A stretch of 64,000 nucleotides of DNA from Candidatus Omnitrophota bacterium (GTDB lineage: Bacteria > Omnitrophota > Gorgyraeia > Gygaellales > Profunditerraquicolaceae), in contig JBDRAV010000003.1 in NCBI GenBank assembly GCA_043823435.1, forward strand, positions 96,366 through 160,365. The letters are read 5' to 3'. Numbering within the stretch: the stretch's first letter is position 1; each line of letters begins with the position of its first letter. Of this stretch, positions 11,053 through 50,069 are shown in pieces. The notes under the pieces were generated by a model that saw only the letters and a list, made by a program, of their open reading frames with translations, made no database searches and was not told the DNA's origin. The translations under genes were made by a program, and so were the position numbers.

Positions 11053-11127
11053 GTAAAGGTATCTTTTTCGCGTACCTCCTCTAGTCCATAGTTTGATTTT
11101 TTTATTATACCGGTTAAGAAAACAGTG

Positions 11128-11502
11128 CTATTTGGCTGTTTTGGATTTATTCTTAACCAAAGCCTCTTTTAAGTTCTCTTCTAATTTATTCTTAAGCTCT
11201 GTGATCTTTTCCAGCTCTTCCTTAAGGCTCTTGGTTACCAGCTGCTCCTGCAGTAAGGCTTTTTTAACGGTTTCATTATCGGCCTTCACATCCTCGAATT
11301 CCTTTTCTTTGGCTGCCTTTTCATTCTTGAGTTCAATCATCTTCTGTTGTGAATCCCAGCTCGCTGCCTTCTCATTATCCAGTTCCACCGAAACTGCCTT
11401 GAGCTTGCCCGCTATGCCGCAGGAACGGATCGTCCCGATGAATAATATCATGCTCAAAATCGCCAATATCATAATAACCCTGTTTTTAATACTTTCTTCC
11501 AT
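11128..11502 (-). CDS. small membrane-anchored coiled-coil protein, function unknown
   Basis: 124 aa. One N-terminal TM helix followed by Lys/Glu-rich heptad-like sequence. Followed by an intrinsic terminator. Confidence 0.5.
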   Translation of the reverse strand: MEESIKNRVIMILAILSMILFIGTIRSCGIAGKLKAVSVELDNEKAASWDSQQKMIELKNEKAAKEKEFEDVKADNETVKKALLQEQLVTKSLKEELEKITELKNKLEENLKEALVKNKSKTAK

Positions 11503-11530
11503 AGTCCCCTCGCATTTAATTCAAGAATAT

Positions 11531-12184
11531 TTACTTTAAGTTCTCTGCCGGTTCAATAAGCCCAGGCCCTTTTGTTTTCACCGAATCTTTCATTTTGGCC
11601 AATTGGGGCAAGATAACGATCTCAACACGGCGGTTTAACTGGCGGCCTTGCGCGCTGCCATTGGAAGCAACAGGCGTATATTCACCATAGCCGATTGCGG
11701 ATAAACGCTTAGGAGAAATATTCTTCTGGTCGACCATATAATGCAATACGCTCAGGGCACGGGCACTGGAAAGTTCCCAGTTCGATTTCCAGCCCGAGAA
11801 TTTAATAGGCATATTATCCGTATGCCCTTCTATACCTACATTCAGCTGGGGCACGTTATCTTTCAGCACGGTCGCCACCTTATCCAGTATAGGATAGCTC
11901 TGCGGCCTTATCTTTGCTTTCCCGGAATCAAACAAAACATCTCCTACCACCGTAACAACCAGGCCCTTCTCCATCAGCTCTAATTTTACATCCTTATCTC
12001 TGATCTCTTTACTAAGCGAGCTCTCTAGGATCCTCTTCGCCTGGTTCAATTCATCAAGTTGCTGGGATAATTCTTCAATCTTTTGCGCGTCCGAACGCCT
12101 CCCTTTCTGGAAGATAAAAGTGCATCCTGCCAGAGTAATGCTCAAGAAAAATATCATTACGGTTTTTAACAGTTTCCCTTTCAT
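11531..12184 (-). CDS. OmpA/MotB-family peptidoglycan-binding lipoprotein
   Basis: 217 aa. Lipobox LAGC, a coiled-coil linker, and an OmpA-like C-terminal domain (GHTDN...NRRVEIVIL). AAGGAGG SD. Confidence 0.8.
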   Translation of the reverse strand: MKGKLLKTVMIFFLSITLAGCTFIFQKGRRSDAQKIEELSQQLDELNQAKRILESSLSKEIRDKDVKLELMEKGLVVTVVGDVLFDSGKAKIRPQSYPILDKVATVLKDNVPQLNVGIEGHTDNMPIKFSGWKSNWELSSARALSVLHYMVDQKNISPKRLSAIGYGEYTPVASNGSAQGRQLNRRVEIVILPQLAKMKDSVKTKGPGLIEPAENLK

Positions 12185-14973: not shown

Positions 14974-16737
14974 TCACCTCTTTATTATTTTTTTAAGTTC
15001 TTCCTTCACCGGCACGCCATGCGAACTGAATATCTCCCGGTTATCCAGCAGATACGCCGGCCCCAACATAATTTGCAATTCCTCACTCAGCGCAATATTC
15101 TCCCTTAGAAGCCTATTCCCTTCTTCTCCGCGCGCGCAAATACTTATCTTATCCGTATCTGCTTCACCTAAGCAATCCTGCCACCATGAACTATTAATAG
15201 AATTCACCCGGCAGCTGATATAATTCCAAAACTCCTGAGGGTAATATTTCTGGACACAGACGCTGCGCAGGCATTCCTCTACTTCAAGGTTCCCTCCCTT
15301 TGCCTCAAACTTTCCCCCGGCCTTTTCGACAACTAAGAAATGCACAATAGGGTTGAATTCTCTTATCGTATTCAATAATGCCCGGGCATCCTTATGGTAT
15401 AAACTCATAAATAAATCCAGCCTTCCCTTAACGGGCTTTCTATCCAGATAATAAGCAATGCCGCTAAAACTGGGATTTAACATATAAAAATCACCCTTTG
15501 CCTGCAGGTTATTCTTTAATTTTCCAAACCCACCCCCTTCTTCCGCTTCTTTCCCCAGAAGATAAACCGGCAGGACATCGATACCCAAATCTTTGATTAA
15601 TCTGTCGGCTTCTTTCCCTGGATAATATAGGTAAGATACTGATAATCCAGGAAAGTATGTCTTCAAAAGGCTCTCCTTATCTTTAGTATAACATGTACTG
15701 CAAAGTTTAGAGGTAATGATCGAGAGGGGGACCTTGACTGCTTTAGTGAATACGCACCGTGCCTGCAATATACCGGGGGAGTCACATCTTCCTACCGACC
15801 CCTCCTGTTTGCAATTATTATCGGAGAAACAGCGCGGTAAAATAGACAGTATATCCGGATCATCGGATATCTTATCTGAAAGACGCAACTCTTCTACCCT
15901 GTAATTCGCTACTTTATTATCATTCAAATCCATGGTTAATTTCCCGATGCCGCGTCCCTGCCAGGAAGGCCTTAATATCAAAACGGCGCCTTCTTTGCTA
16001 AAAATATCTTTCTTTGTGCGGCTATGGCCTACAATAAGGATACCTATCCCCTCGACTTCCTTCAATAAACTTAAATCCTCACTCTCGCCCAGATGGCTTA
16101 TGAGTATAATAAGGTCTACTCTATTCTTTTTTAATTCTGATACTGCCTCTTTAACCGCTGTTTTCGGATCAATAAACCGCATGCCGCTTGCTCCGGCCTT
16201 CTGCTCTGCCAGAGAATTAGTCAAGCCGATTATACCTATCTTCCTGCCGGCGGATTCTTTTATAATATATGGCTTGAGCAAAGGAACCCCCGCCCCTTCT
16301 GCACAGATATTAGAAGAAAGAAAAGCTATCCGCGTCTTCCCGACATTATCCTGGAGGAACTCCATGCCGAAGTTAAATTCATCATCTCCGACTGTAGCGG
16401 CATCATACTTCATTAATTCCATTGCCTCAAGATTTACGATGGAGCGTTGCATATCCAGTTCTGTATTCTGGGTATATTCATCCTGAAGCCCGCCGGCAAA
16501 GAATCCGCCTGAATCTAACAATAAGAGGTCAGGGCTATCCTTTCTTAACTCTTTGATCAAGGTAGCGCGCCGCGCTATCCCGCCGTCCGACTGGTAATGG
16601 CAATTGCAAGGATAAAGCATTGCGTGCGTCTCGCCGGTATATAGTATGGTAATCTCCTGGGCGCTTATATCACTAGAGAACAGAAAACAGAAAACAAAGA
16701 GTGCTAGGGAGAATATAGATAAACTTTTTCTTGTCAT
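14974..16737 (-). CDS. secreted 5'-nucleotidase/metallophosphoesterase-like domain fused to Cys-rich and thioredoxin/DsbA-like C-terminal regions
   Basis: 587 aa. Signal peptide, then a UshA-like N-terminal half with altered metal motifs. Next comes a four-Cys cluster, a CSTC (CxxC) motif and a second Trx-like segment. Confidence 0.6.
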   Translation of the reverse strand: MTRKSLSIFSLALFVFCFLFSSDISAQEITILYTGETHAMLYPCNCHYQSDGGIARRATLIKELRKDSPDLLLLDSGGFFAGGLQDEYTQNTELDMQRSIVNLEAMELMKYDAATVGDDEFNFGMEFLQDNVGKTRIAFLSSNICAEGAGVPLLKPYIIKESAGRKIGIIGLTNSLAEQKAGASGMRFIDPKTAVKEAVSELKKNRVDLIILISHLGESEDLSLLKEVEGIGILIVGHSRTKKDIFSKEGAVLILRPSWQGRGIGKLTMDLNDNKVANYRVEELRLSDKISDDPDILSILPRCFSDNNCKQEGSVGRCDSPGILQARCVFTKAVKVPLSIITSKLCSTCYTKDKESLLKTYFPGLSVSYLYYPGKEADRLIKDLGIDVLPVYLLGKEAEEGGGFGKLKNNLQAKGDFYMLNPSFSGIAYYLDRKPVKGRLDLFMSLYHKDARALLNTIREFNPIVHFLVVEKAGGKFEAKGGNLEVEECLRSVCVQKYYPQEFWNYISCRVNSINSSWWQDCLGEADTDKISICARGEEGNRLLRENIALSEELQIMLGPAYLLDNREIFSSHGVPVKEELKKIIKR

Positions 16738-18320
16738 TACAGCCTGATTATTTTTACCGCTAAGATATTATCGGTTTTCTTTATCTTATCCAGGAGTTGC
16801 GCCGATACGGCACTATCCACATTCAGTATGGTAATCGCTTTTCCTCCCGGCTTTTCGCGGCCAAAGGTCATGGCGGCGATATTAATGTCGTGCTCACCAA
16901 GAAGCATCCCCATATTCCCGATAATGCCCGGCTTATCCCAGTTCTGTATCATGATCATTTCTCCCGCCGGGGAAACCTCTACGTAATAACCGCCGATCTT
17001 TACGATACGCGGCTGTTTATTCGCGGATAATGTACCAGATATCACCTTTGATTCCTTATCAGTCTTTATCTCAAGCTGTATCAGGTTCACGAACTCTTCT
17101 TCTTTAGAGGTCTTGGCCTCCCTGATCCTTATGCCCCTTTCCTTCGCCAGGCTTACGGCATTGATAAAATTTACCGTCTCCTTCAGGATAGGCGAAAGCA
17201 TCCCTTTCACGAGAGACATAGTCAAGGGGCTTAGATCATATTGCACGATCTCTCCGCTATAGCTTATGCTGAGTTCCTGGAACCTGCCCTCAACCATCTG
17301 GCCGCAAAAGGCACCCATCTTCTCGGCTAAATTGATATAGGGATCAAGGAATTTGCAAACCTCTGCTTCTATGCATGGGTAATTTGCGGCATTACGTATA
17401 CCTTTACCCAAGAGCGCATCACGTACTATCTGTGCCACTTCGATGGCGACATTGACCTGCGCTTCCTCGGTAGATGCACCCAGGTGCGGAGTTAATATGA
17501 CATTATCTAATTTTAATAACTCACTGTCGGCGGGCAATGGCTCATTTTCAAATACATCCAGCGCCGCTGCCGCTATCTTATCTTCTTTTATAGCGCTTAA
17601 TAATGCTGCCTCATCGATTATGCCCCCGCGGGCGCAATTTATTAAACGCGCCCCTTTCTTCATCGCATCGAATTCTTTGCCTGAGATTATATGTTTTGTT
17701 TCTTCGGTCAGGGGCGTATGTACGGTAATATAATCCGATTTGCCGAGGAGCTCTTTCAATTCAGCTATTTCTATACCCAGGCTCTCCGCGACTTCGCGCG
17801 ATAAAAACGGGTCATACGCCAGCACCTTCATTCCGAAAGATAAAGCACGTTTAGCCACTTCTGTGCCTATCCTGCCCAAACCCACGATACCTAATGTTTT
17901 TCCGTAAAGTTCGATCCCCATAAACTTGGAACGCTTCCATTCCCCTTTCTTCATAGAAACATTGGCCTGGGGTATATTCCTGGAGAGAGACAAGATCATG
18001 CTTATGGTATGCTCCGCGGTAGAAATAGTGTTTCCTCCGGGGGTATTCATTACGATTATCCCTTTTTGCGTGGCTGCCTCTAAATCAACGTTATCTAACC
18101 CTACCCCTGCGCGGCCGATGACTTTTAGCTTTGCGGCAGCTGCGATTATATCTTTGGTCACCTTGGTGGCGCTACGCACGATAAGGGCATCATAATTCCC
18201 GATCTCTTCTTTCAAGGCCTCAGGCTTCAGTCCAGTCTTGACATCTACCTGAAACTCCTTCACCTCTTTTAATATCTTCAGACCCTCTTCCGACAGCGGA
18301 TCACTGACTAATATTCTCAT
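16737..18320 (-). CDS. serA: D-3-phosphoglycerate dehydrogenase (long form with ACT domain)
   Basis: 527 aa. GLGRIG NAD-binding motif, 2-hydroxyacid dehydrogenase catalytic region, and a C-terminal ASB/ACT region. Confidence 0.95.
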   Translation of the reverse strand: MRILVSDPLSEEGLKILKEVKEFQVDVKTGLKPEALKEEIGNYDALIVRSATKVTKDIIAAAAKLKVIGRAGVGLDNVDLEAATQKGIIVMNTPGGNTISTAEHTISMILSLSRNIPQANVSMKKGEWKRSKFMGIELYGKTLGIVGLGRIGTEVAKRALSFGMKVLAYDPFLSREVAESLGIEIAELKELLGKSDYITVHTPLTEETKHIISGKEFDAMKKGARLINCARGGIIDEAALLSAIKEDKIAAAALDVFENEPLPADSELLKLDNVILTPHLGASTEEAQVNVAIEVAQIVRDALLGKGIRNAANYPCIEAEVCKFLDPYINLAEKMGAFCGQMVEGRFQELSISYSGEIVQYDLSPLTMSLVKGMLSPILKETVNFINAVSLAKERGIRIREAKTSKEEEFVNLIQLEIKTDKESKVISGTLSANKQPRIVKIGGYYVEVSPAGEMIMIQNWDKPGIIGNMGMLLGEHDINIAAMTFGREKPGGKAITILNVDSAVSAQLLDKIKKTDNILAVKIIRL

Positions 18321-20316: not shown

Positions 20317-20381
20317 GTTTTGAGTCTTGAGTTTTGAGTTTATTCTCCAGCTTCTAACTCTTAGCTCATAACTCCTAACTA
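20317..20381. repeat. two-armed heptanucleotide-periodic palindrome (GAGTTNN units)
   Basis: Left arm: gttttga gtcttga gttttga gtttatt (20317-20344). Right arm: ctaactc ttagctc ataactc ctaacta (20354-20381). The right arm overlaps the tig stop codon. Confidence 0.75.
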
Positions 20382-21250
20382 TTTTGCCAGTCCGCTTCTC
20401 TCAATAAAAACTCCATAACCTTACGAGGCATATGGTCGTCTATGGGTATATTTTCCTTCTTGGCAATAGCGGACAGGATCAGATAAACCCTGACCTGTTT
20501 CTTCGCTTCCTGTTCCAGCTGTCCGGTTATCGCTTTCTCCTGCTCTTCTATTTTTTCTCGCGAGACCCCCTTTAAAGCCAGGTCTAATTTAGTCTGCCTG
20601 AGCATATCCTGCAACTGACGGTTGACCAGGCCTTGAGGCAATTTAAAATCCAGACCCTTACTAATATTCTCCACGATCTCCTTCTCTATCTTCTGCCTCT
20701 GCTGGTTCTCTTCGCGTAGGTAAATCTCTTTCTCCACCGCCTTCTCTAATTCAGAAAGCATGGGATAACCTAATGACCTGGAAAAATTATCGTCTACAGT
20801 CTCTATTTTTCTTGTTTCTTTAATGGAATCGATATTGCGCTTTATCATATCCGCGCTAACTTCTATCTTCTTATAATTCACCCTGATACCCTTATAGTTT
20901 TTTATCGGGATCTGTGGGCTTATCTCTACCCTCGCCTTGAATGAAAGACTACCCCTGTCCAGTTTCACTTCGGATACTTCGGGCAGTTCTATAACCTCAA
21001 GGCCCTCCTTATCTATCGCCTGGTTATAAAGCTCGGGGATAAGTTCCTTCATTACCAACTCATGCGCATGAGAGGAATATTTCTTTTCCAGGATATCGCG
21101 TGGGGCATGGCCGGGCCGAAAACCTGGTATCTTGGCCTCTTTCGATATCTGTGCAAAAACATCATTAAATTTATTCTTGACCAGATCGCCGCTTACCTCA
21201 ATACTGATCTCCCTTTTGTTGCTGTCTATCTCTTTGACTTCAGTTTTCAC
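20375..21250 (-). CDS. tig: trigger factor, short form without recognisable PPIase domain
   Basis: 291 aa. N-terminal ribosome-binding signature GFRPGHAP and C-terminal arm-domain-like sequence. GTG start at 21250 preceded by a purine-rich RBS. Confidence 0.85.
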   Translation of the reverse strand: MKTEVKEIDSNKREISIEVSGDLVKNKFNDVFAQISKEAKIPGFRPGHAPRDILEKKYSSHAHELVMKELIPELYNQAIDKEGLEVIELPEVSEVKLDRGSLSFKARVEISPQIPIKNYKGIRVNYKKIEVSADMIKRNIDSIKETRKIETVDDNFSRSLGYPMLSELEKAVEKEIYLREENQQRQKIEKEIVENISKGLDFKLPQGLVNRQLQDMLRQTKLDLALKGVSREKIEEQEKAITGQLEQEAKKQVRVYLILSAIAKKENIPIDDHMPRKVMEFLLREADWQNS

Positions 21251-21303
21251 CCCGCTCTTCCTTTCCTAATTAATACCCCGACCCTTTTGGAAGGACGGGC
21301 CCC
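21247..21303 (-). promoter_or_regulatory. repeated hairpin + RBS + GTG-start leader cassette, copy A (tig)
   Basis: The 20-mer tcaccccgctcttcctttcc (21247-21266) is identical to 24506-24525. Upstream hairpin is CCCGTCCTTCCAAAAGGGTCGGGG (minus-strand sense). Confidence 0.7.
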
Positions 21304-21397: not shown

Positions 21398-22120
21398 CTA
21401 CATCTTAAACTTCTCACCCAGATATATCTCTCTTGCCTTGGAGTTACTAATAAGATCATCGGCCGTGCCTGATATCATGATTCTTCCGTCGGCAATCAAA
21501 TAAGCCCTGTCTGTTATGGAAAGCGTCTCCCGGACGTTGTGATCCGTGAGCAGAATACCCAAGCCCTTATCCTTTAATTCCTTGATGATCTCCTGCGCCT
21601 CATTAACTACTATAGGATCTATGCCTGAAAATGGTTCGTCTAAAAGTATGAAAGAAGGATTTGTGACTAACGCCCGCGTGATCTCAAGACGCCTCCTCTC
21701 GCCGCCCGATAAAGTATAGGCCTTGTTTTTGGCAAGACGGGCGATATTCAATTCCTCAAGCAGGCTTTCTAGCCTGCGCCTCCTCTCCACCTTATTTATG
21801 GGAAGTGTCTCCAGGATAGCCATAATATTCTCTTCAACGGTGAGTTTCCTGAAAATAGACGCTTCCTGTGAGAGGTAACCTATACCGAAACGCGCGCGCG
21901 AATGTATAGGCAGGGAAGTTATATTAAAATTATCGAATACAATGGAGCCCGCATTCGGAGGAATAACCCCGACCACCATATAGAAAGTAGTGGTTTTTCC
22001 GGCGCCGTTAGGCCCAAGTAACCCTACTATCTCGCCGCGCTTAACTGAGAGGTCTACACCTTTCACTACCTGTCTACCGTCGTAAGATTTAGAGAGCCCC
22101 CTAATTTCCAAAAGATGCAT
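21398..22120 (-). CDS. lptB: LPS export ABC transporter ATP-binding protein
   Basis: Walker A GPNGAGKTT, signature LSGGERRR, Walker B ILLDEP. I prefer the start at ATG 22120 (MHLLEIRGL, AGGAGG 7 nt upstream) over the ORF-track start at 22204. Confidence 0.9.
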   Translation of the reverse strand: MHLLEIRGLSKSYDGRQVVKGVDLSVKRGEIVGLLGPNGAGKTTTFYMVVGVIPPNAGSIVFDNFNITSLPIHSRARFGIGYLSQEASIFRKLTVEENIMAILETLPINKVERRRRLESLLEELNIARLAKNKAYTLSGGERRRLEITRALVTNPSFILLDEPFSGIDPIVVNEAQEIIKELKDKGLGILLTDHNVRETLSITDRAYLIADGRIMISGTADDLISNSKAREIYLGEKFKM

Positions 22121-22997
22121 CCAGCCCCTCCTGAGAATATATAACCAATTTAGGCCTGCCCGAAAGGATAATTCTGTTTTGCGCGGCGTCGTATGTCGCC
22201 TCATCGCTATAGGATACGTTCTCTCCCCGAGTAATCTTGACGTTTCCCCGCGCCACGATCTTATCTATCTTACTGCTCATCGCGGAGTCAGCCTTTGGCA
22301 ATGCGGAAGCGTCTTTGCCCGTACCGCCGAAATATACATCCATTATATCACTGTCTATCAGTACATCCTGGGTATTCACCTTGACGTTATTATTAAAGGT
22401 AGCGACGTTCTTATCGTAATCTATCTCGAGCGGACCGTCACAGGTGATCACTATCTTCTTGTTGACATCCCGGACGCTATCTTTATCTGCATTATCCGGA
22501 TTGATATTCACGGTCACGTCTTTTTCCAGACTCACCTTCTTAAGGCTGGGCTCACCGTACGCTCCGCTTGCAGTAGTCACCATATTGCCTCTTTCTATAT
22601 TAACCGCGTCTTTCGTAGTAACAAGCTGCTTCTTCCTGTCCCAATCCAGAGAATCAGTAGTTAATTTGGAGCCGGTAGATGTAGTAATTACCACGTTTTC
22701 CTCGAGGTGGATCTTGCCGTCTGCCTTATCAAAATCACCCTTATCGGCAGTAAGCACGATGTCCTCTTCTTTGCCGTAAAGATTGCCGACTACCTCTTTC
22801 AGTTTTACCACATCCGAAAATATATCCGCGGATTTCCCGGCGAGGTCCCAGGACTTCTTACCTTTATCGCCGAAACTAGCCAGGGAGAAATCCATAATCT
22901 GCTGGTCCGACCCCTGGTCAACCTGCTCCTGGCAGATTGCGCTAAATGCAGGAAAGATAAAAAAGGCCAAAAATGTAAAGAATATCTTAAGGGTCAT
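22101..22997 (-). CDS. LptC-like plus LptA/OstA-like two-module periplasmic LPS transport protein
   Basis: 298 aa. Signal/anchor sequence followed by two OstA-type beta-jellyroll-like halves. Located between kdsC and lptB, where lptC and lptA normally sit. Confidence 0.65.
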   Translation of the reverse strand: MTLKIFFTFLAFFIFPAFSAICQEQVDQGSDQQIMDFSLASFGDKGKKSWDLAGKSADIFSDVVKLKEVVGNLYGKEEDIVLTADKGDFDKADGKIHLEENVVITTSTGSKLTTDSLDWDRKKQLVTTKDAVNIERGNMVTTASGAYGEPSLKKVSLEKDVTVNINPDNADKDSVRDVNKKIVITCDGPLEIDYDKNVATFNNNVKVNTQDVLIDSDIMDVYFGGTGKDASALPKADSAMSSKIDKIVARGNVKITRGENVSYSDEATYDAAQNRIILSGRPKLVIYSQEGLDASFGN

Positions 22998-23540: not shown

Positions 23541-24527
23541 TTATGCTAATCCGGCCTTTAATAAATCCTGTACGTCCAAAAGCCCTACGGGCCGGTAATC
23601 TTTATCTACTACCGGCACCTCATCTATCTTTTTTTCCTGGAGCATGCGCATGGCCTCGGCAGCCAATTTGCCCCCGGTAATCACAAGGGGCCTTTTGGTC
23701 ATCACTTCCCTGATCTTCATTTTGGGTAACTCCCTCTTTGTCCCCAGATGCCGTCGTAGATCTCCGTCAGTGAATATCCCGGTTAATCTTCCCTTATTAT
23801 CCACTACCGAGGCGGCTCCGGCGCGCGCCTGGGTAATTTTCAGCAGGACATCTGAAACTGTCCTTTCCTCATTGACCACGGGATTATCCCTGCCCTTACG
23901 CATGATATCCTCTACTTTTAAAAGCAGCTGTTTGCCCAGCATACCTCCCGGATGGTAAAAAGCGAAATCCTTCGCCTTAAACCCTTTCAGTTCCAGAAGG
24001 CATACTGCCAGGGCATCTGCCATGGCTAAAGTAGCGGTAGTAGAAGCGGTAGGGGCGAGCCCCAAAGGACAGGCCTCTTTTCTTACGGAAACGTCCAATA
24101 CTATATCACTGTATTTAGCGAGAACAGATCTAGTCTTTCCGGTCAACGCGATGATCTTTGCCCCTATCTTCTTTAAGAAAGGAAGTAGCTGTTTTATCTC
24201 TTCGGTCGACCCGCTGTTAGAAATAATGATCACTGTATCGTCAGAAGTCACCCTTCCCAGGTCTCCATGGGCGGCTTCGGATAAATGCATGAATAAGCTT
24301 GGCGTACCGGTAGAAGAAAGGGTCGCGGAGAGTTTCTCGGCGATGATACCGGTTTTACCCATACCGCTTACCACTATCCTACCTTTAGTCTTTAATACGG
24401 TAACGACGGCTTCCTTAAAACTGTTACCCAGGCGTGATTTCAGCGCCCTTACCGCCTCTGACTCAATATCCAGGACCTCTTTCGCGCGTCTAAGAATATT
24501 TATTCTCACCCCGCTCTTCCTTTCCAT
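23541..24527 (-). CDS. kdsD: arabinose-5-phosphate isomerase (SIS + tandem CBS)
   Basis: 328 aa. SIS domain (VVSGMGKTG) and C-terminal CBS pair. The start is ambiguous: ATG 24527, or GTG 24509 by analogy with the repeated leader cassette. Confidence 0.9.
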   Translation of the reverse strand: MERKSGVRINILRRAKEVLDIESEAVRALKSRLGNSFKEAVVTVLKTKGRIVVSGMGKTGIIAEKLSATLSSTGTPSLFMHLSEAAHGDLGRVTSDDTVIIISNSGSTEEIKQLLPFLKKIGAKIIALTGKTRSVLAKYSDIVLDVSVRKEACPLGLAPTASTTATLAMADALAVCLLELKGFKAKDFAFYHPGGMLGKQLLLKVEDIMRKGRDNPVVNEERTVSDVLLKITQARAGAASVVDNKGRLTGIFTDGDLRRHLGTKRELPKMKIREVMTKRPLVITGGKLAAEAMRMLQEKKIDEVPVVDKDYRPVGLLDVQDLLKAGLA

Positions 24528-24557
24528 GCATACCCCTGCCCTACAGAAGGGCGGGGC
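24506..24557 (-). promoter_or_regulatory. leader cassette, copy B (kdsA-kdsD junction)
   Basis: Carries the same 20-mer as copy A. The hairpin CCCCGCCCTTCTGTAGGGCAGGGG starts right after the kdsA stop codon. Confidence 0.7.
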
Positions 24558-25370
24558 TCATAATGCCTTCTCTATTTTCTTAACCTGTTTTAAGAGCCTG
24601 CGCAATTCTTTTAGATCGATCATATTCGGACCGTCGCAGGGCGCTTCATCAGGCGCAGAGTGCACTTCTAAAAACAGTCCGTCGCAACCAAAGGCGACAG
24701 CTGCACGTGAGAGGCCAGCCACAAACTCCCGCTGCCCCCCGGATGAAGAGCCTTTCCCTCCCGGCAGCTGGATGCTGTGCGTAGCGTCATAAATCACCGG
24801 GTAGCCGAACTCGCGCATAATAGCGAGGCTACGCAAATCAGAAACAAGGTTATTATAACCAAAAGAAGCCCCCCGCTCGGTGATCAAAATAGACTTATTC
24901 CCTGTTGACTCTATCTTCTTAATTATAGGCAATACATCCCATGGAGCCAGAAACTGCCCCTTCTTGATATTTATCACCTTGCCTGTCCTGGCGACAGCCA
25001 GTACTATATCCGTCTGGCGGCACAAGAATGCCGGGATCTGCATTACGTCCAGGACCCGCGATGCTTCGGGGATATCATTTTTGCAATGTATGTCGCTTAA
25101 TATGGGGACCCTTAGACGATCTTTTACTTTCTGCAGGATCTCTAAGCCTTTCTTCATCCCGGGACCGCGATAAGAATCTATAGAGAGCCTATTTGCCTTA
25201 TCAAAGCTGGACTTGAAAATAAAAGGGATCCCCGATTCTGCGGCAATATCTTTTATCTTCTTTGCCGTATCAAGGCATTGCCTTTCGGACTCGATCACGC
25301 ATGGACCCGCTACCAGGACCAACGGGTTCCTGCCGCCTATTTTTATCTTTCCTACATTAATCTGGCGCAT
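24558..25370 (-). CDS. kdsA: 2-dehydro-3-deoxyphosphooctonate aldolase (KDO8P synthase)
   Basis: 270 aa. KdsA family (GPCVIES, KSSFDKANR). Confidence 0.95.
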   Translation of the reverse strand: MRQINVGKIKIGGRNPLVLVAGPCVIESERQCLDTAKKIKDIAAESGIPFIFKSSFDKANRLSIDSYRGPGMKKGLEILQKVKDRLRVPILSDIHCKNDIPEASRVLDVMQIPAFLCRQTDIVLAVARTGKVINIKKGQFLAPWDVLPIIKKIESTGNKSILITERGASFGYNNLVSDLRSLAIMREFGYPVIYDATHSIQLPGGKGSSSGGQREFVAGLSRAAVAFGCDGLFLEVHSAPDEAPCDGPNMIDLKELRRLLKQVKKIEKAL

Positions 25371-26113: not shown

Positions 26114-27127
26114 TTATTTTATCCTTTCTAATAACTCTTTTCTGTCGGTAACTGCCGTGCCTAATTTACCGACCACAATGCCGGCAGAGAAGTTAGCGAT
26201 ATGCGCGGCCTCAAGCTTTGAAGCCCCGCAGCAAAGCGCCAGGGTAAAACTGGATATTACCGTATCACCGGCGCCTGAGACATCAAATACCTCCTGCGCT
26301 ACCGTCGGTATATGCGTCAGACGTCCGCCCTTCTCAAATAAACGCATCCCGTGTTCGCCTAAAGTCACAAGCAGCGATTCCAACCCCAGGTATTTTAAAA
26401 TCTCTCTTGCCGCCGAGTCTATATCCTTATCGGTAAATAATTTATCCGTATTGAACTTAAAAGCGTTAGAAATATCCTTGATGCGCAGATTCCTTATCGC
26501 GTTCTCCAGTTCTCTGCGGTTAGGGGTGATGGAAGTAACGCCCCGGTAATACTGAAAATGCTCCTCCTTGGGGTCTACGGATATTATCTTCCTGCGGGCG
26601 CGCGAAAGCGCGATAATCTCTTCCAATAAATGCATATTTATCACGCCCTTACCGTAATCTTCGATGATAATGGCATCAAAGCCATCGATATTATTTTTTA
26701 CGAACCCGACGATCCGCTTATTAAGTTTTTGCGTAAGGGGATGGGTGTGCTCCCAATCCACCCTGACTACCTGCTGGTGCCCGGCGATAATGCGCGTCTT
26801 AACCGTGGTATGCCGGCGGTTTTCGCTAAATATCCCCGAAGTGTTTATCTTTTTCTTCTTCAGTTCCGATAATAAAAGGGCAGCGTTTTTGTCCTTTCCG
26901 ATAACGCCGGCCAGGCATACGCCTGCCCCGAACGAACGGATATTGCTGGCCACATTAGCCGCGCCCCCAGGGACGAAGGTATGGGTGTCCGCCCATACTA
27001 CCGGTACGGGCGCCTCGGGTGATATCCTGTCTACGCTGCCGCCTATATATTCATCCAGGATTACATCCCCCAGCACGAGTATTTTAGCCTTAGCGAATCT
27101 ATTGATTATCTTCTCAAGGTTCTTCAC
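26114..27127 (-). CDS. hldE: D-glycero-beta-D-manno-heptose-7-phosphate kinase (RfaE/HldE domain I only)
   Basis: 337 aa. PfkB-type sugar kinase with an HldE-like N-terminus (ILVLGDVILDEY) and GAGDT motif. No adenylyltransferase domain. GTG start. Confidence 0.85.
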   Translation of the reverse strand: MKNLEKIINRFAKAKILVLGDVILDEYIGGSVDRISPEAPVPVVWADTHTFVPGGAANVASNIRSFGAGVCLAGVIGKDKNAALLLSELKKKKINTSGIFSENRRHTTVKTRIIAGHQQVVRVDWEHTHPLTQKLNKRIVGFVKNNIDGFDAIIIEDYGKGVINMHLLEEIIALSRARRKIISVDPKEEHFQYYRGVTSITPNRRELENAIRNLRIKDISNAFKFNTDKLFTDKDIDSAAREILKYLGLESLLVTLGEHGMRLFEKGGRLTHIPTVAQEVFDVSGAGDTVISSFTLALCCGASKLEAAHIANFSAGIVVGKLGTAVTDRKELLERIK

Positions 27128-27193
27128 CCCACCCTTCCTCTCCTAATTGTATGCCCCAACCCTTTTGGAAGAGCGGGGTTCACCCCACTCTCC
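27124..27193 (-). promoter_or_regulatory. leader cassette, copy C (hldE), with an extra partial 3'-arm copy
   Basis: tcaccccacccttcctctcc (27124-27143) matches the A/B 20-mer at 17 of 20 positions. ccccgctcttcc (minus-strand sense, 27178-27167) is the exact complement of the A/B RBS segment. A duplicate GGAGAGTGGGGTG lies at 27193-27181. Confidence 0.65.
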
Positions 27194-27208
27194 TTTATTA
27201 TCTTAACT

Positions 27209-27229
27209 CCGGCCCTCAGGAAGGGCCGG
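27209..27229 (-). other. GC-rich hairpin directly after the DHS-like gene stop (terminator-like, no U-run)
   Basis: ccggccc (27209-27215) and gggccgg (27223-27229) form a perfect 7-bp stem with a 7-nt loop. Confidence 0.5.
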
Positions 27230-27231
27230 GT

Positions 27232-28161
27232 TCATATCTTTTCAATTATCGCCTGCGCCAGTAATGGAAGCATTATTTCATGGTGGCCGATGATATAGTG
27301 GCCGCTGCCAGCTCCCTGAACAGGACGTGATACCACGTTCTGCATCGGGCGGTAATGATAGATCATATCAAAGTTTGCGCTAGTAAAATTCTTCACCTTA
27401 TACCCCAGGTTCCTCGACAGGTTCAATGCCTTTAAGAATACCTCCGGCAATATCACTGCTGAGCCGAAATTAAGGACTACCCCGCCGTCATTAAGTCCGC
27501 GGATATTTTCCACGAGTAAATGAAAGTCCCTGAAAGACCCCTCTGCGGCCATGGCAGCGTCGAAAGAAGGATGCTGGTGTATAATATCCGTTCCGATAGC
27601 AACATACACGCAAAGCGGAACTTTATTTTTATAGGCATTATAAAGTAGGCTTAAATTTTTATAACGCAGTCTTGAACCGTTTATCTTTTCTGCCACGGCA
27701 TAACCCAATCCCAGGCCAGAAGATACCCCCTCCTTGACGGCACTGTTGAGGAAATCCGCGGTCTCATGCGCCATCCCGAATTTACCGTCCCTTAACCCCT
27801 CGCCTACGTCTTCGGAAGTTTCACCGTTAAATGCAATCTCAAAATCGTGGATAATGCCAGCGCCGTTTAACGCAACGCAAGTAATGACCTTCTTCTTTAT
27901 CAACTCAATAACTATGGGATTAAGGCCACACTTTATCACATGCGCCCCGGCCATAAAAATAACTGCTCTCTTCTTCCTGCGGGCCCTTACCACCGCGTCA
28001 ACTATGGCGCGTATCTCCTTTACTTTTAATATATTAGGCAAAGAGGCGTAATAAGTAGAAAAGCTCCTTCCTTGAGCCGGTATCTTGGCAAAATCAGCGA
28101 GATTTACCTTGCTTCGCCTTTTCTTTATTGAATATGTCTTTATCTTCTTTATATTTATCAT
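27232..28161 (-). CDS. deoxyhypusine-synthase-like family protein, function unknown
   Basis: 309 aa. AGAHVIKCGLNPIVIELIKKKVITCVALNGAGIIHDFE resembles the DHS-fold core by eye. The assignment is tentative. Confidence 0.5.
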   Translation of the reverse strand: MINIKKIKTYSIKKRRSKVNLADFAKIPAQGRSFSTYYASLPNILKVKEIRAIVDAVVRARRKKRAVIFMAGAHVIKCGLNPIVIELIKKKVITCVALNGAGIIHDFEIAFNGETSEDVGEGLRDGKFGMAHETADFLNSAVKEGVSSGLGLGYAVAEKINGSRLRYKNLSLLYNAYKNKVPLCVYVAIGTDIIHQHPSFDAAMAAEGSFRDFHLLVENIRGLNDGGVVLNFGSAVILPEVFLKALNLSRNLGYKVKNFTSANFDMIYHYRPMQNVVSRPVQGAGSGHYIIGHHEIMLPLLAQAIIEKI

Positions 28162-31367: not shown

Positions 31368-32152
31368 TATTTATGGCGGTGCTCCCGCATAAAATTATAA
31401 TACCCGTTCGTCTCCGCCCAGAAGACAAACAGGTTACGCGCATTCGAGGATATCCTCAACCTCTTCAGGGCGAATATGTCGTCATCGGAGAATTCTTTAC
31501 CGGGGTTGGTGGCTACGGCTAACTTGTATCCCGCTTCCATAACCAACTGTTTTATCCTGTCATTAAACCTGCCTTCCGGATAACTGAAGGCATTGATCGG
31601 CCGGCCTAACTTATCTTCCAGTATCCTCTTGGAACCAAAGATCTGTCCCCTTATCTCCTCTTCAGATTTTATATTAACCAACGGTTCCGGCCCGAAGGTA
31701 TGGCTACCAAAGGTAATGATACCCGAATCCCGCATCTCATTGATCTCTTTCCAGCTTAGCCTGTCCGGCCTACCCACTTCGTCAATAATGATAAAGATCG
31801 TTGCGGGAAGGTTATATTTCTTTAGTATGGGAAAGGCATAAATATAATTATCCTTGTACCCGTCGTCAAAGGTTATGCTGACTGTCTTATGGGGGACCCT
31901 CTTTCCTTCTTCGATCAAAGCGGCGATAGGCTCAAGAGAGAGCACATTGTAATTATTATTTTTAAGGAAACGCATCTGGCGCTCAAAGGTCTCAGGAGTC
32001 AGCGCAAGCCTGTTTTGCGGCAGGGCATGCGGGTCAACCGAATGGTACATTGCTATAGGCACGGTATAATTGCCATATATAAAGACCGCCGAGGAACCCA
32101 ATGCAAAAATAAGCAGGGCAAAAAGGACAATTAAGAATCTGCGTTTAAACAT
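31367..32152 (-). CDS. polysaccharide deacetylase (CE4/NodB family)
   Basis: 261 aa. N-terminal TM helix and the TFDDGY motif. Confidence 0.85.
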   Translation of the reverse strand: MFKRRFLIVLFALLIFALGSSAVFIYGNYTVPIAMYHSVDPHALPQNRLALTPETFERQMRFLKNNNYNVLSLEPIAALIEEGKRVPHKTVSITFDDGYKDNYIYAFPILKKYNLPATIFIIIDEVGRPDRLSWKEINEMRDSGIITFGSHTFGPEPLVNIKSEEEIRGQIFGSKRILEDKLGRPINAFSYPEGRFNDRIKQLVMEAGYKLAVATNPGKEFSDDDIFALKRLRISSNARNLFVFWAETNGYYNFMREHRHK

Positions 32153-33222
32153 TCCAGGTACACCTCCTCTGTTTCCCGGGCCATCTTCTCCTGAGAGAAA
32201 TTACCCTTAATGAAAGCGGCGGCGTTTCCTCCGAGCCGCCTTGCCTCCCCGGTATTTTGCAGTAATTCCAATATCGCGCGGGATAATCCCCGGCTGTCAG
32301 CCGCAGCGACCAGTAAACCGTTATCCTTATCCCGGATAAGACTCTTTATACCCCCTGCATCCGAACCGATAACAGCAATCCCGCAAGCCATTGCCTCCAT
32401 TAAAGCAAGGCCCAGGCCCTCTTTTGTAGAAGGAAGCACAAATAAATCCATGGCAGATAATGCCTCCCGCGTATCCATTACCGTCGGAAGAAAAACCACG
32501 CTCTTATCCAGCCCAACATCTCTGGCTAAACCCGCCAATCCCTCCTTCGTCCTGCCCTCTCCGACTATAAATAATTGCACTGCGGGGATCCTGGCGATAA
32601 CCCCCTGCATGGCTTCAATAAGATAGGCATGCCCCTTCTCTTCAGAAAGCCTGGCAACTATACCTACCACCGGGCCATCGCCTAACCCTAATCTTCTTTT
32701 CGCGTTGACTCTGGACTCCAAACTCGTAACTGCGAACTTTTCCACATCTATCCCGTTATGTATAACCGCGATATCATCTTCCCTTACCCAGAGATCCCTG
32801 ATCAGGTGCTCTTTCACGGGCTGGCTTATGGCTATAACCTTTCTCCCCCAAGATGGGAAAATCTTACGTAAAAGCCTCTTTTTAAAGAAACCATGGCAGG
32901 TCGAAATATATGGCCTTCCTAACATGCAGCTTAATACCTGTGTCACGCGCGTATTCGCATGGATGATATCTATCTTCTTATCTTTTAGATATCCGGATAA
33001 TTTAAACCTGCTGAGCAAAATCTTGTAACTCGCCTCTGATTTTGTCCTTATGGGTATAGGCAGGTATTCTATGCCATTTTCAATGAACCTATAGAGGAGA
33101 TCTCCTTTGCTTGAGGCTATATAGACATCGTGGCCCCGCTTCTTCATACCGCAGGCAAGGGTCAGGATATAGCTGGTTATGCCGCCAGTATTAAGATGAT
33201 TGGTCAAATAAAGTATCTTCAT
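32131..33222 (-). CDS. glycosyltransferase family 4
   Basis: 363 aa. GT-B fold type with N-terminal GGITSY and a C-terminal EGLGLALMEAMACG motif. Confidence 0.85.
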   Translation of the reverse strand: MKILYLTNHLNTGGITSYILTLACGMKKRGHDVYIASSKGDLLYRFIENGIEYLPIPIRTKSEASYKILLSRFKLSGYLKDKKIDIIHANTRVTQVLSCMLGRPYISTCHGFFKKRLLRKIFPSWGRKVIAISQPVKEHLIRDLWVREDDIAVIHNGIDVEKFAVTSLESRVNAKRRLGLGDGPVVGIVARLSEEKGHAYLIEAMQGVIARIPAVQLFIVGEGRTKEGLAGLARDVGLDKSVVFLPTVMDTREALSAMDLFVLPSTKEGLGLALMEAMACGIAVIGSDAGGIKSLIRDKDNGLLVAAADSRGLSRAILELLQNTGEARRLGGNAAAFIKGNFSQEKMARETEEVYLECLNADS

Positions 33223-35324
33223 CCCGCTGCCTGTTTACCTAACAGTTTATATATCGCCTCTAATACCTCTTCAGGTTTTATTGATTCCATGCACTCTATA
33301 GTTTTACAGCGTGACCTATAACAGGGGGCACAATCCAGACCCTTCTTGAGCACCACGCATTCTTTCGCCTTCGGTAGGTGCCGCCCGGACTCAGTGGCAC
33401 CGAAGAGGGCAACGAAAGGCACCTTTTGGCTAACCGCCACATGCAGGGGCGCCGAATCGGGAGAAATAAAAACGGAACACCGCTTAATCAGGCATGCCAG
33501 CTGATTCACCGTAGTCTTGCCGCAGGCATTGATTATCTTTATATTCTTGAGCTTGCTGGTCAATGCATTAGCTGCGTTTATATCTTTTTCCGTACCGGTG
33601 ATCAAAACCCTGAATTCCCTACGGGCTAATTCCTCGGATAGCCTTGCGATATGATGCAACGGCCAGTTTTTAGTCGGCCACTTGGAACTTGCGCTTATAT
33701 TGATACCTATGAGCACCTGATTGTCGCTTAACCATTCCGATTTAAGAAAATCATCAACGTATTTTTCGTCCTGCGGGGACGGCCAAAGTTCAAGCATTGC
33801 GTCTTTCTGTTCTATGCCAAGCATCTTTAATATCCTGAACTGATGCTCTACGGGGTTGATAAGGGGGCGTTCGTCTTTTATGCGCCTATTGAGCAGAAAA
33901 CCAAACTTTTTATTATCGTATCCGTAACGCTTTAAGGCCAGGCTTAAAAAAGAAAGTATATGGCTCTTACGGTTATTCTGCAAATCTATGACTATATCAA
34001 AATCATTCTTTCTCAGCGTCGCGGCTAACCTGAGAAGCCCCCGCACGCCTTTATCCCTGTTTTTAAAGTCGCAAACCAGCAGTTCATCTATGTAGGGGCA
34101 ATTTAAAAGCAGGTCCCTTGATTCTTCGCTTACCAAGAAGTTGATCTTATGATTACGGCGGAACTTCTCCATTATCGCCCTAATGGCGGCAGTAGAAAGG
34201 ATAATATCCCCAAGAGAGCTGAATTTAATGATCAGAATCTTGAAATTACTGAGCGCCTCTTTATAAACATCAAGCGTGCTGCGCGCCATAAGCTCTAGAT
34301 TATATTTTTCCTTTACTTTCTTATAGGCGTTCTCCGCCAGCTTGCGGCCTAATTGCGGATCCCTGAATATCTTTATCGCGGCATCCGCAATACTCGCCGG
34401 GTCAGCAGAAGGAACAAGCAGGCCTGTCTTCTGGTCATCTATGATATCGACTACGCCCCCTACACGTGTAGCTACTACCGGAACACCGCATGCCTGTGCC
34501 TCCACGATCACTCTACCGAATGCCTCATGCGTGGTAGTCGCAAGTACCAGAAGATCAAGGTGCGCCAATATCCCGGGGATATCCCTCTGGTTCCCGAGGA
34601 ATTGCGTACAGTGCCACAGACCCAGACGTTTTACCAAAACCTGTACATGCTCTTTGTAGGCCTCTTTGGAGCCAGGGGCATCACCTACTATCCATACTTT
34701 CAGGCGCGGCACGCTCCTTGCGACATAAGCCATCGCCTTTATAAAATGCGGGTGACCTTTGATAGGGGTAATCCTCCCGACTATCCCCACGTTAAATTCA
34801 TCTTTTCTTTTCTCTTCGGGGCTGATATATTTGAATTTCTCAAGGTCAACGCTGCGTGGGATTAACCTGATGCGCTCGTGGGGGACGTCGAAATCTTCTA
34901 TCATATGCCGGACGATCACATTACTTAAAGCAATCACCCTCCTGCCCCATCCCATAACGTAACTGAATGGGTGTTTCTTATAATAACCATGGCAGGTAGT
35001 AATAAATGGTCTGCCCGTTTTACGGCAGGCGAAATATGCGATCCAGGCAGGGACGCGGGAGCGCGCGTGGACAATATCAATCTCTTCTTTCCTGATAATC
35101 GCGGATAATTTCGGTATCATCCTGAGCATGGTAAATATGGATTTCTTGTGCACCGGCAACTGGTAATGAATCGCTCCATAGGACTCAAGTTCCTTTACCA
35201 TGGCCCCGCCGTTCGAGACCACCACAGCCTTATGGCCGTTCTTGACTAAATACCTGGCCAGGTCAATGGTCCCGGTCTCGACTCCGCCTATATTGAGTTG
35301 TGGCAATATCTGTAAGATATTCAT
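33219..35324 (-). CDS. GT4-GT9 fusion glycosyltransferase
   Basis: 701 aa. N-terminal GT4 (GGVETGTIDL ... EAFGRVIVEAQACG), then directly a GT9 module (ILIIKFSSLGDIILST ... SPDSAPLHVA). Confidence 0.8.
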   Translation of the reverse strand: MNILQILPQLNIGGVETGTIDLARYLVKNGHKAVVVSNGGAMVKELESYGAIHYQLPVHKKSIFTMLRMIPKLSAIIRKEEIDIVHARSRVPAWIAYFACRKTGRPFITTCHGYYKKHPFSYVMGWGRRVIALSNVIVRHMIEDFDVPHERIRLIPRSVDLEKFKYISPEEKRKDEFNVGIVGRITPIKGHPHFIKAMAYVARSVPRLKVWIVGDAPGSKEAYKEHVQVLVKRLGLWHCTQFLGNQRDIPGILAHLDLLVLATTTHEAFGRVIVEAQACGVPVVATRVGGVVDIIDDQKTGLLVPSADPASIADAAIKIFRDPQLGRKLAENAYKKVKEKYNLELMARSTLDVYKEALSNFKILIIKFSSLGDIILSTAAIRAIMEKFRRNHKINFLVSEESRDLLLNCPYIDELLVCDFKNRDKGVRGLLRLAATLRKNDFDIVIDLQNNRKSHILSFLSLALKRYGYDNKKFGFLLNRRIKDERPLINPVEHQFRILKMLGIEQKDAMLELWPSPQDEKYVDDFLKSEWLSDNQVLIGINISASSKWPTKNWPLHHIARLSEELARREFRVLITGTEKDINAANALTSKLKNIKIINACGKTTVNQLACLIKRCSVFISPDSAPLHVAVSQKVPFVALFGATESGRHLPKAKECVVLKKGLDCAPCYRSRCKTIECMESIKPEEVLEAIYKLLGKQAAG

Positions 35325-37297: not shown

Positions 37298-38351
37298 TTT
37301 TTATGATCTTCAATTCTATGCGCAGGAACCATACCGGCAACTTATAGCCGGTAACCGGAAGCTGGTAAAGCCTGGATGCGTCTTTCTCGGTAGTGACCAG
37401 CACGCTTATTCCCGTATCTGTGGATTTGCTAATAATCTCATCCATATCTTTCTGGGTATAATTATAATGGTCGCGGAACCTGAAAGAAGTGCCGATATTC
37501 ACCCCCTGTTTGCTGACCAGCAGCTCAAAAGAAGCGGGGTCCGCTATGGCAGAGAATAAACCCGCGCTCTTACCCGCCAGCATATCCGCCCCCATCAGTT
37601 CACGCGGTTTATCCAGCCTGCAAAATCCCAAAGGGGCATGCGCGGACTCTACCTGAAAGGCCCCCGGATTGATACGCCTCAAATAACCCTTGACCTCATC
37701 TTGTGCCGGGCTAATATTGGCCTTGGTCAGTATAAAGATGTCGGCGCGTTTAAGCGATGAAAGCGGCTCGCGCAATATCCCGCGGGGGATAAGATTACGG
37801 TTCCCGAAAGGGAAGGTACTGTCAACGGCAACTATCTCAAGGTCCTTTTTTATGCGCCACTGCTGCATCCCGTCATCCAAGATCACCGTATCCGCTCCGT
37901 AATCGCGTATTGCCGAATTTCCCGCGCGTATCCTATCATGATCTACTATCACGGGTATATCTTTCAAGTTCATCTGCAGCATATAAGGCTCATCGCCCAT
38001 TGCCTCGGCGTTCGGTGTTCGGTGTTCGGTGTTCGGCCGAGAACCGAGAACCGAGAACCGAGAACCCATTCTTTTATATCCTCTGCTAAGTATCGCTACT
38101 TTATGCCCATGCTCCTTTAAATAGCGCGCAATATACAATACGAGGGATGTCTTCCCTGTCCCGCCCAAAGTAATATTTCCCACGCTGATAACTTTACATC
38201 CCAGCCGGTAAGGTTTAATGCGATAAATAAAGAGTAATATCCTGACAACTAGTCCATAGATAAGAGAGATAAGGTAGAGAAAAGAATTGAGCGTCCCCGC
38301 TACGGGCCCTCTATGTTTATCTGTGGCCAGTTCGTAAATATAACGTAACAT
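37251..38351 (-). CDS. lpxK: tetraacyldisaccharide 4'-kinase
   Basis: P-loop GNITLGGTGKT, SRGY and GDEP motifs. I prefer the start at ATG 38351 (MLRYIYE), which overlaps the stop of the upstream gene (TGATG). The ORF-track start at 38507 lies inside that gene. Confidence 0.85.
   Translation of the reverse strand: MLRYIYELATDKHRGPVAGTLNSFLYLISLIYGLVVRILLFIYRIKPYRLGCKVISVGNITLGGTGKTSLVLYIARYLKEHGHKVAILSRGYKRMGSRFSVLGSRPNTEHRTPNAEAMGDEPYMLQMNLKDIPVIVDHDRIRAGNSAIRDYGADTVILDDGMQQWRIKKDLEIVAVDSTFPFGNRNLIPRGILREPLSSLKRADIFILTKANISPAQDEVKGYLRRINPGAFQVESAHAPLGFCRLDKPRELMGADMLAGKSAGLFSAIADPASFELLVSKQGVNIGTSFRFRDHYNYTQKDMDEIISKSTDTGISVLVTTEKDASRLYQLPVTGYKLPVWFLRIELKIIKNEEGFRSRLLGLFSH
38004..38064. repeat. 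two-armed heptamer palindrome inside lpxK
   Basis: ctcggcg (ttcggtg)x3 ttcgg, then (ccgagaa)x4. The central tcggccga is a perfect 8-nt palindrome. The element encodes GSRFSVLGSRPNTEHRTPNAE. Confidence 0.9.
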
Positions 38352-49991: not shown

Positions 49992-50023
49992 GGTAACCCC
50001 CTTTTGGTATCTATTCTTCGCTT

Positions 50024-50052
50024 ATTTTACTCTTTTTAATTGGATAAATCAA
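50024..50052 (-). promoter_or_regulatory. sigma-70-type promoter for the zf-TFIIB / DUF3786 / nuclease operon
   Basis: Minus strand reads TTGATT (50052-50047), a 17-nt spacer, then TAAAAT (50029-50024). It lies back to back with the plus-strand promoter. Confidence 0.5.
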
Positions 50053-50069
50053 TAAATTTAGATTATAAT
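50040..50069 (+). promoter_or_regulatory. sigma-70-type promoter for the helicase transcript
   Basis: Plus strand reads TTGGAT (50040-50045), an 18-nt spacer, then TATAAT (50064-50069). This implies a leader of about 210 nt. Confidence 0.5.

Follow-up and report, generated by a model that had tools for sequence, protein, structure and literature searches.

We analysed a stretch of 64,000 nt from a Candidatus Omnitrophota genome (contig JBDRAV010000003.1, positions 96,366 to 160,365 of the forward strand; hereafter the window), in which nearly all genes lie on the minus strand. Read in gene direction, the region of interest holds a heptosyltransferase gene, a deoxyhypusine-synthase-like gene, two tandem copies (D and C) of a short module, the hldE kinase gene, kdsB, kdsA, module copy B, kdsD, kdsC, lptC/A, lptB, a spacer of 130 nt, module copy A, tig and clpP. 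The module, its relatives in other genomes and its probable origin are the subject of this report. The original prediction, made from the DNA letters, had placed the module at the starts of tig, kdsD and hldE, and its sequence claims are all correct on the minus strand. However, the set of three copies was incomplete: a profile built from more than 100 family members and run over the 64 kb gives four copies in all, of 48-52 nt, the overlooked one (D) lying directly upstream of the hldE copy C.

Four copies of a small module at gene starts

In its own orientation, the module begins with a left terminal inverted repeat of 12 nt (TIR-L, CCCCGCCCTTCC) and ends with its right counterpart (TIR-R, GGAAGRGCGGGG). 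Between the two repeats come, in order, a loop of 3-4 nt, a G-rich near arm (GGGnnGGGG) with which TIR-L can pair, and a spacer rich in A and G. TIR-R and the purines preceding it form a Shine-Dalgarno (SD)-like sequence, AAAGGAAG or GGAGGAAG, which is followed by AGCGGG and then GTG and lies about 6 nt from the start. The trailing TGA with which the module had been taken to end is present, but it is only part of the 4-nt direct repeats (TGAA or TGAG) that bound the module. The copies and their parts, including a relic open reading frame (ORF), are as follows.

21250-21300, minus strand: copy A, at the tig start; TIR-L 21289-21300 (GCCCGTCCTTCC), near arm 21276-21284 (GGGTCGGGG), spacer with the SD 21262-21275, TIR-R 21250-21261 (GGAAGAGCGGGG), whose terminal G (21250) is base 1 of the tig GTG
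21246-21249, minus strand: right TGAA repeat of copy A, which with the terminal G of the element gives GTG-A, the tig start; orthologues read ATGAAAAC
24509-24556, minus strand: copy B, between kdsA and kdsD; TIR-L 24545-24556, near arm 24533-24541 (GGGCAGGGG), TIR-R 24509-24520; its terminal G is used in the kdsD GTG (24507-24509)
24557-24560, minus strand: left TGAG repeat of copy B, whose TGA (24558-24560) is the kdsA stop and, with the preceding A, forms the relic ATG of an ancestral ATGA overlap
24505-24508, minus strand: right TGAG repeat of copy B, giving GTG-AG, the kdsD start
27127-27178, minus strand: copy C, proximal to hldE; TIR-L 27167-27178 (CCCCGCTCTTCC), TIR-R 27127-27138 (GGAAGGGTGGGG); hldE GTG 27125-27127
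27123-27126, minus strand: right TGAA repeat of copy C, giving GTG-AA, the hldE start
27183-27230, minus strand: copy D, head-to-tail upstream of C, with a perfect local hairpin (CCGGCCC/GGGCCGG) and a degenerate TIR-R (AGGAGAGTGGGG)
27231-27234, minus strand: left TGAA repeat of copy D
27179-27182, minus strand: TGAA common to copies D and C
27124-27183, minus strand: relic mini-ORF of 19 codons, which opens at the GTG of copy D, continues across copy C and terminates where a TGA overlaps the hldE GTG (GTGA, -4 spacing)

Copies B, C and D carry the same four bases on either side (TGAG in B, TGAA in C and D), and once the element and one repeat are removed, stop and start overlap as ATGA, in frame with the gene downstream. 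The mini-ORF at copy B stops at a TAG in the loop. TIR-R of copy D and TIR-L of copy C could form a hairpin of 11 bp across their common TGAA.

The similarity between the copies is far above chance, because a 17-mer with up to 3 mismatches finds 5 matches in the window against 0.25 expected, and the asymmetric whole-module pattern finds 4 against 0.00. As first described, copies A (21266 to 21247) and B (24525 to 24506) share the identical 20-mer GGAAAGGAAGAGCGGGGTGA, and copy C (27143 to 27124, GGAGAGGAAGGGTGGGGTGA) matches it at 17 of 20 positions. The complementarity of the 5' arm to the ribosome-binding site (RBS) and start codon also held when rechecked by hand, with 9 Watson-Crick pairs, one wobble and one mismatch over 11 positions in copy A and 10 of 11 positions paired in copy B; in copy C all 12 of 12 pair, 2 wobbles included.

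The GTGs are the true starts, as had been proposed. The tig product matches Pfam Trigger_N from residue 1, and the N-termini align with orthologues beginning ATGAA, which start at the same codon as the element-made GTGs (ATGAAAAC, ATGAAGAA and the like). The longest kdsD ORF begins at an in-frame ATG (24525-24527, minus strand) inside copy B, 18 nt upstream of the GTG; homology to orthologues at empty sites favours the GTG.

A dispersed family with target duplications and empty sites

Metagenome data were scanned with an asymmetric element pattern that contains no flank bases and matches all four window copies. Matches lie on at least 120 metagenome contigs, and the matches listed comprise 132 to 139 distinct copies, depending on the analysis; the family counts given below are among these listed matches. 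A pattern of the TIRs alone matches either strand, and copies were oriented by their purine-rich interior. The element pattern had no match in viral contigs, and no copy was found in 1.38 Mb of other genomes, the loci from the closest metagenome-assembled genomes (MAGs) included.

Nearly all copies read, in their own orientation, aTGAA, CCCCGCCCTTCC, TAA, GGGnnGGGG, spacer, AGGAAGRGCGGGG and TGAA. The elements are 44-59 nt long (mode 49, with one outlier of 71 nt), and at 11 of the 12 positions TIR-L and TIR-R complement each other in at least 96% of 135 distinct copies. Identical flanks of 4 nt are present in 112 of the 132 oriented copies (TGAA in 99, TGAG in 9, TAAA in 3 and TGGA in 1), and all 132 have one polarity. 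The repeat is preceded by A in 104 of these copies, by G in 21, by T in 6 and by C in 1, which mirrors start-codon usage. As in miniature inverted-repeat transposable elements (MITEs), we see short non-coding elements with TIRs, a target-site duplication, many dispersed copies, and both filled and empty sites, the latter on contigs L001, L004, L163, L120 and L088.

The position of the element relative to genes is equally regular. An ORF of at least 80 codons begins exactly at the G of the element plus TG in 104 of 122 copies, compared with 0 and 2 in the other two frames; the copies without such an ORF are upstream tandem members or precede short genes, such as that of the 37-aa L36. On the upstream side, the left TGA is the stop codon of an ORF of at least 80 codons in 39 of 96 copies. 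This is the placement of mycobacterial interspersed repetitive units (MIRUs), that is, at the start codon or operon junction, in gene orientation and with NTGA (-4) geometry, the polarity being uniform in 132 of 132. The start-codon restriction is strong, given that the window by itself offers 572 TGAA sites and contains several NTGAR overlaps with no element. Part of this restriction must be survival and ascertainment bias, since intragenic insertions are lost and decayed neutral copies escape the patterns. An SD-like tetramer stands upstream of the relic NTG in only about one quarter to one third of the sites, many of which are tight operon junctions. The mini-ORF opened by the relic start reaches the GTGA overlap in 31 copies, window copy C included, and stops within the spacer in the others, and element length modulo 3 is weakly biased (56, 47 and 29 copies). 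An in-frame mini-ORF was considered as a universal coupling device and rejected, with only these 31 copies qualifying and so weak a length bias.

Direct evidence of insertion comes from relatives. The nearest genomes are Candidatus Omnitrophota MAGs with KdsA identities of 73-76% and the same gene order, and occupancy at the three junctions is as follows.

kdsD junction: filled in the window, L088 and L120/L155; empty in L001, L004 and L163, where kdsA and kdsD meet at GCG(A/C)TATGAA
hldE junction: filled in the window (2 copies), L105 and L177 (3 copies); empty in L001 and L120/L155, where the sequence upstream of hldE is GA(A/G)AAGATATGAA
tig junction: filled in the window, L123, L141 and L163; empty in L088 and L002-L005

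In alignments, the empty junctions equal the window sequence minus the element and one TGAR, exactly, and the tig start in relatives without the element always reads ATGAAAAC or ATGAAGAC. Occupancy is patchy among these syntenic contigs of about 70% identity; for example, L163 is filled at tig and empty at kdsD, and L088 shows the reverse.

The precise empty sites and the flanking duplications indicate that the copies arose by insertion. We therefore regard the module as very probably one member of a family of very small, non-autonomous mobile elements of MITE or MIRU type, abundant in Omnitrophota-like genomes. The element inserts into NTGAR with duplication of TGAR, preserves both flanking ORFs without a scar and supplies an SD and a GTG, and its surviving copies are found almost only where the NTG is a gene start, often within an ATGA stop/start overlap, and always in the orientation of the gene. 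The original prediction had named a repeat element supplying an RBS as its fallback, and it is this fallback that the flanking 4-bp duplications, the precise empty sites, more than 130 copies elsewhere and the tandem arrays bear out. In such an insertion the left TGA is kept as the upstream stop or as part of a relic ATG, and the terminal G of the element joins the right TGA to make the new GTG start. With the left TGA retained and the GTG rebuilt, both flanking proteins are unchanged and the downstream gene gains a portable translation-initiation region.

Some copies outside the window show other facets of the family. The rplK/rplA junction is filled in three contigs (L121:360-409, L182:3508-3557 and L192:678-728, element orientation), whose copies share the same left repeat shortened by 1 nt (TGA followed by C), and this insertion is therefore probably old and inherited; the TIRs and G-runs are kept there and the spacer has diverged. 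In the tandem arrays at L177:761-915, L196:5997, L118:10157, L194:7086 and L151:208, the upstream members have the same TIRs, unrelated interiors and no near arm, suggesting that the TIR family has several interior subtypes. Another copy with a variant interior (L128:389-439) has the TIRs of the family, lacks a near arm, is flanked by a TAAA duplication and lies within a long ORF, where the 50 + 4 = 54 nt keep the frame; it may be an intragenic in-frame insertion resembling the Rickettsia palindromic elements.

RNA pairing and the competing explanations

The 5' arm had been predicted to pair either with its near partner or with the RBS and start, in mutually exclusive structures. These pairings are real and near-isoenergetic across the family, with median energies over 139 copies of -15.5 kcal/mol for the local hairpin and -17.6 kcal/mol for the TIR-TIR helix. 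In the predicted structures, the SD core and base 1 of the GTG are covered when TIR-L pairs with TIR-R and free when it pairs with the near arm. Because the exclusive pairings are real and so balanced, a structure-dependent effect on translation is left possible, and such an effect, with a coupling role at the RNA level, is plausible as a prediction. TIR-L begins one base past the upstream stop or relic start, and hence TIR-L would be covered, and the SD freed, by a ribosome that terminates at that stop or translates the relic mini-ORF. In this model the near arm would serve as a decoy, holding TIR-L off the RBS, and the downstream gene would stay translated and coupled. An inverted element would place a tight hairpin right over the SD and start codon, and selection could then explain the polarity. 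Mechanistically polar insertion is a possible alternative to such selection, because the few orientable copies away from gene starts share the polarity.

Several observations weigh against a mobile element of the MITE or MIRU type. Classical TIR/DDE transposition alone does not account for the absolute polarity, for which either a polar mechanism or strong selection would be required. In about 0.77 Mb of element-bearing DNA, neither an autonomous element with these TIRs nor an orphan-TIR structure or long-range TIR pair pointing to one was found, and a Pfam search of all window ORFs found no transposase domain in the window. Copy A has ACGGGGG on its left flank in place of the TGAA repeat, and the orthologous copy in L141 lacks the left repeat as well. 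Because the collection of copies needed conserved TIRs, plus the near arm for the seeding scan, decayed and neutral ones are under-represented, and ascertainment or retention accounts for part of the start-codon bias. Moreover, the SD-occluding TIR-TIR helix is predicted to dominate at equilibrium in 94 of 128 copies folded with their flanks, which is surprising for housekeeping genes unless coupling or kinetic trapping intervenes.

It is possible, if tentative, that the bistable RNA of the mobile element was selected as a translational-coupling or switch module, an explanation compatible with mobile origin. The TIR-L:TIR-R pairing would close the RBS unless a ribosome ends upstream or reads the mini-ORF, and the near arm would tune or relieve this closure. 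The balance between the two structures is consistent with such a role, as are the stability of the local hairpin relative to shuffled interiors (median z -2.4) and the location of TIR-L within the ribosome footprint of the upstream stop, and coupling by RNA unfolding is established in other operons (PMC12548453). Three double changes, one in window copy D and two in CCCA-type copies, preserve the local hairpin. None of the 8 variants that lack a near arm is gene-proximal, which, with the retention of both TIRs and the G-runs at rplK/rplA despite spacer divergence, hints at constraint on the RNA; however, the near-arm result is subject to ascertainment bias. Collecting further copies for covariation, as had been proposed, yielded these few double changes but almost no informative variation, TIR-L being near-invariant (identical in 120 of 139 copies). 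The TIR-TIR double changes (A-T at position 4 twice, T-A at position 1 once and T-A at position 12 three times) are equally expected from recognition of the element ends at the DNA level, and at position 7 a C.A mismatch interrupts the pairing in 99 of 135 copies. The predicted dominant state also varies between copies, those of the window included, and the rarity of the mini-ORF overlap and the weak modulo-3 bias likewise speak against selected coupling.

A broader proposal, which we hold to be rather doubtful, is that these are phylum-wide, start-codon-homing mini-elements that enter NTGAR with fixed polarity, by some polar mode of mobilisation, and act as a portable, self-insulating cassette for initiation and coupling. 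Such a cassette would consist of an SD, a G that restores the start codon and a three-way RNA whose RBS is held open by the decoy arm or by the upstream ribosome. They would be retained, and perhaps favoured, for supplying a strong SD at SD-poor Omnitrophota junctions.

Mobilisation as single-stranded DNA by an HUH/Y1 enzyme, with insertion 3' of TGAA in one polarity as in repetitive extragenic palindromes (REP/REPIN-RAYT) or in palindrome-associated transposable elements (PATEs) derived from IS200/IS605, would account for the absolute polarity relative to an asymmetric 4-nt target. The imperfect, bulged G+C-rich hairpin at the left end, a size within the REP range and the head-to-tail tandem arrays are also consistent with this route. 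We nevertheless judge it unlikely. The flanks co-vary (TGAG/TGAG in 9 copies against TGAG/TGAA in 1, TAAA/TAAA in 3 and TGGA/TGGA in 1), which argues for a true target duplication and not a fixed right end borne by the element. There is no second subterminal hairpin, the ends being a simple 12-bp inverted repeat, and no RAYT or TnpA gene turned up, although no search aimed at either was made. Membership of the two named groups was rejected, that of REP/REPIN on its expected lack of target duplication in the face of co-varying flanks (the RAYT gene was not searched genome-wide), and that of the IS200/IS605-derived PATEs on the single hairpin, at the left end, and the co-variation of the right flank with the left.

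The original prediction favoured an RNA thermometer or riboregulator dedicated to an envelope/chaperone regulon of tig, kdsD and hldE. Alternative pairings do exist, one of them over the SD core and the first GTG base, and all window copies lie within one 6-kb region of lipopolysaccharide (LPS) genes and tig. However, the genes started by the element do not form such a set: 114 downstream ORFs represent 111 Pfam families, with four occurrences each of L1, L36, trigger factor and KdsD beside TrpA, PheT and many others, and therefore no envelope/chaperone regulon or other functional theme emerges. Folding at different temperatures, the check that had been suggested, predicted no common change between 5 and 50 C in the gene-proximal copies A, B and C; B, like D, is always in the local hairpin, C is always in the occluding helix, and A is mixed and opens slightly at low, not high, temperature. 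Occupancy at tig, kdsD and hldE varies between close relatives, Rfam gave no match (permissive search of 20-28.5 kb and gathering threshold on the whole window), and the duplications and empty sites already account for the origin of the copies. We consider a dedicated thermometer very improbable. Terminator and promoter prediction gave no call on any copy and no T-run follows the hairpin, and a role of the hairpin as terminator or promoter was rejected.

An immobile, conserved leader of operons, multiplied within this region by duplication or gene conversion, would fit the presence of four copies within 6 kb of the LPS/tig region and the 20-mer shared by A and B, but is scarcely credible given more than 130 copies at unrelated genes on at least 120 contigs, precise empty sites and 4-bp duplications that vary by site.

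Known systems, neighbouring genes and significance

By description, the closest known analogue appears to be the mycobacterial MIRUs. According to Supply et al. (1997), as described in later sources, these are elements of 40-100 bp inserted at start codons, with an internal ORF coupled at -4 spacing, tetranucleotide direct repeats, imperfect TIRs and G+C-rich internal inverted repeats (PMC12548453, PMC3184786). Shared with the present element are a size of 40-100 bp, tens of copies per genome, location inside operons, insertion at the start codon in gene orientation, in some copies a short ORF within the repeat that would be coupled to the gene at NTGA spacing, filled sites flanked by tetranucleotide direct repeats and empty counterparts in relatives, tandem occurrence, and imperfect TIRs with G+C-rich internal inverted repeats. 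In contrast, MIRUs belong to Actinobacteria and the present element to Omnitrophota, the two being compared by description and not by sequence. The present element has an explicit SD, a terminal G that turns the duplicated TGA into GTG, and near-perfect 12-bp TIRs with a three-way pairing among TIR-L, near arm and TIR-R. Its mini-ORF meets the GTGA overlap in only about one quarter of the copies, and internal-ORF coupling therefore cannot be its general solution.

Other bacterial MITEs (the Neisseria Correia element, enterobacterial RU/ERIC and MITEAba12) are likewise short and non-coding, with TIRs, a short target-site duplication, many dispersed copies and filled and empty sites, and are co-transcribed with their neighbours to give hairpins in mRNA. 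However, they measure 100-300 nt compared with about 50 nt here, and the present element differs in its asymmetric 4-bp TGAR target, its absolute polarity, its nearly exclusive location at start codons, and in bringing an SD and a start codon, where those MITEs provide promoters or processing sites. The Neisseria REP2 and Borrelia IR repeats stand immediately upstream of ORFs and carry an RBS and start codon (Delihas 2011, PMC3184786). In contrast to the present element, REP2 lacks TIRs and also has a promoter and an ATG, and the source mentions neither target duplication nor start-codon insertion (PMC3184786); moreover, REP2 marks a co-regulated gene set, whereas the genes served here have no common theme. 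Translational coupling by RNA unfolding is known from MS2 coat/lysis and E. coli rpmI-rplT (PMC12548453). The predicted arrangement here resembles it in a long-range helix that joins the end of the upstream ORF to the downstream RBS and would be opened by the terminating ribosome; the difference is that the helix comes ready-made from the inverted repeats of a mobile element, and its function is putative. Neither Rfam nor the searchable literature, examined for accounts from Omnitrophota and for MITEs that supply a GTG and an RBS, yielded a description of this element.

Several neighbouring genes are unusual in themselves. The trigger factor (20375-21250, minus strand) has only 291 aa, with Trigger_N and Trigger_C and no PPIase domain, and its relatives match over the same 289 residues. 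The ORF at 22101-22997 (minus strand) combines LptC and LptA/OstA-like domains and overlaps the listed lptB ORF by about 100 nt, suggesting that lptB probably starts further downstream. Between the heptosyltransferase gene and hldE, the deoxyhypusine-synthase-like protein (27232-28161, minus strand; weak Pfam DS match) occupies the same position in Omnitrophota relatives at 60-71% identity. A GT4 and a GT9 heptosyltransferase are fused in one ORF (33219-35345, minus strand), as are a lipid A acyltransferase and an ELM1-like domain (35321-37300, minus strand), and the junctions of these two ORFs are both unoccupied ATGAA stop/start overlaps. The ORF at 14974-16767 (minus strand, 597 aa) has no Pfam match, nor do the plus-strand ORFs 11057-11539, 31826-32134, 42637-42969 and 49615-50055, which may not be genes. 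A tRNA scan and Rfam found no tRNA and no Rfam family within the 64 kb.

For the Omnitrophota, the element explains many GTG starts and "conserved leaders" in MAGs that would otherwise be mis-annotated, and gene callers may err at such sites, as with the in-element ATG of kdsD. Its presence or absence at a junction offers possible markers for strain typing. The family illustrates the MIRU strategy a second time, independently and in an uncultivated phylum, with clearer anatomy (TIRs, target-site duplication and SD). It is also a natural compact design of an "insulated RBS", whose bistable RNA is a candidate translational-coupling module, and its interest would be greater if the polarity proved to be mechanistic or the bistable RNA a selected coupling device. 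By bringing its own RBS and rebuilding the start, a selfish element can colonise the ATGA stop/start overlap, the most constrained spot of a compact genome, and harm neither gene.

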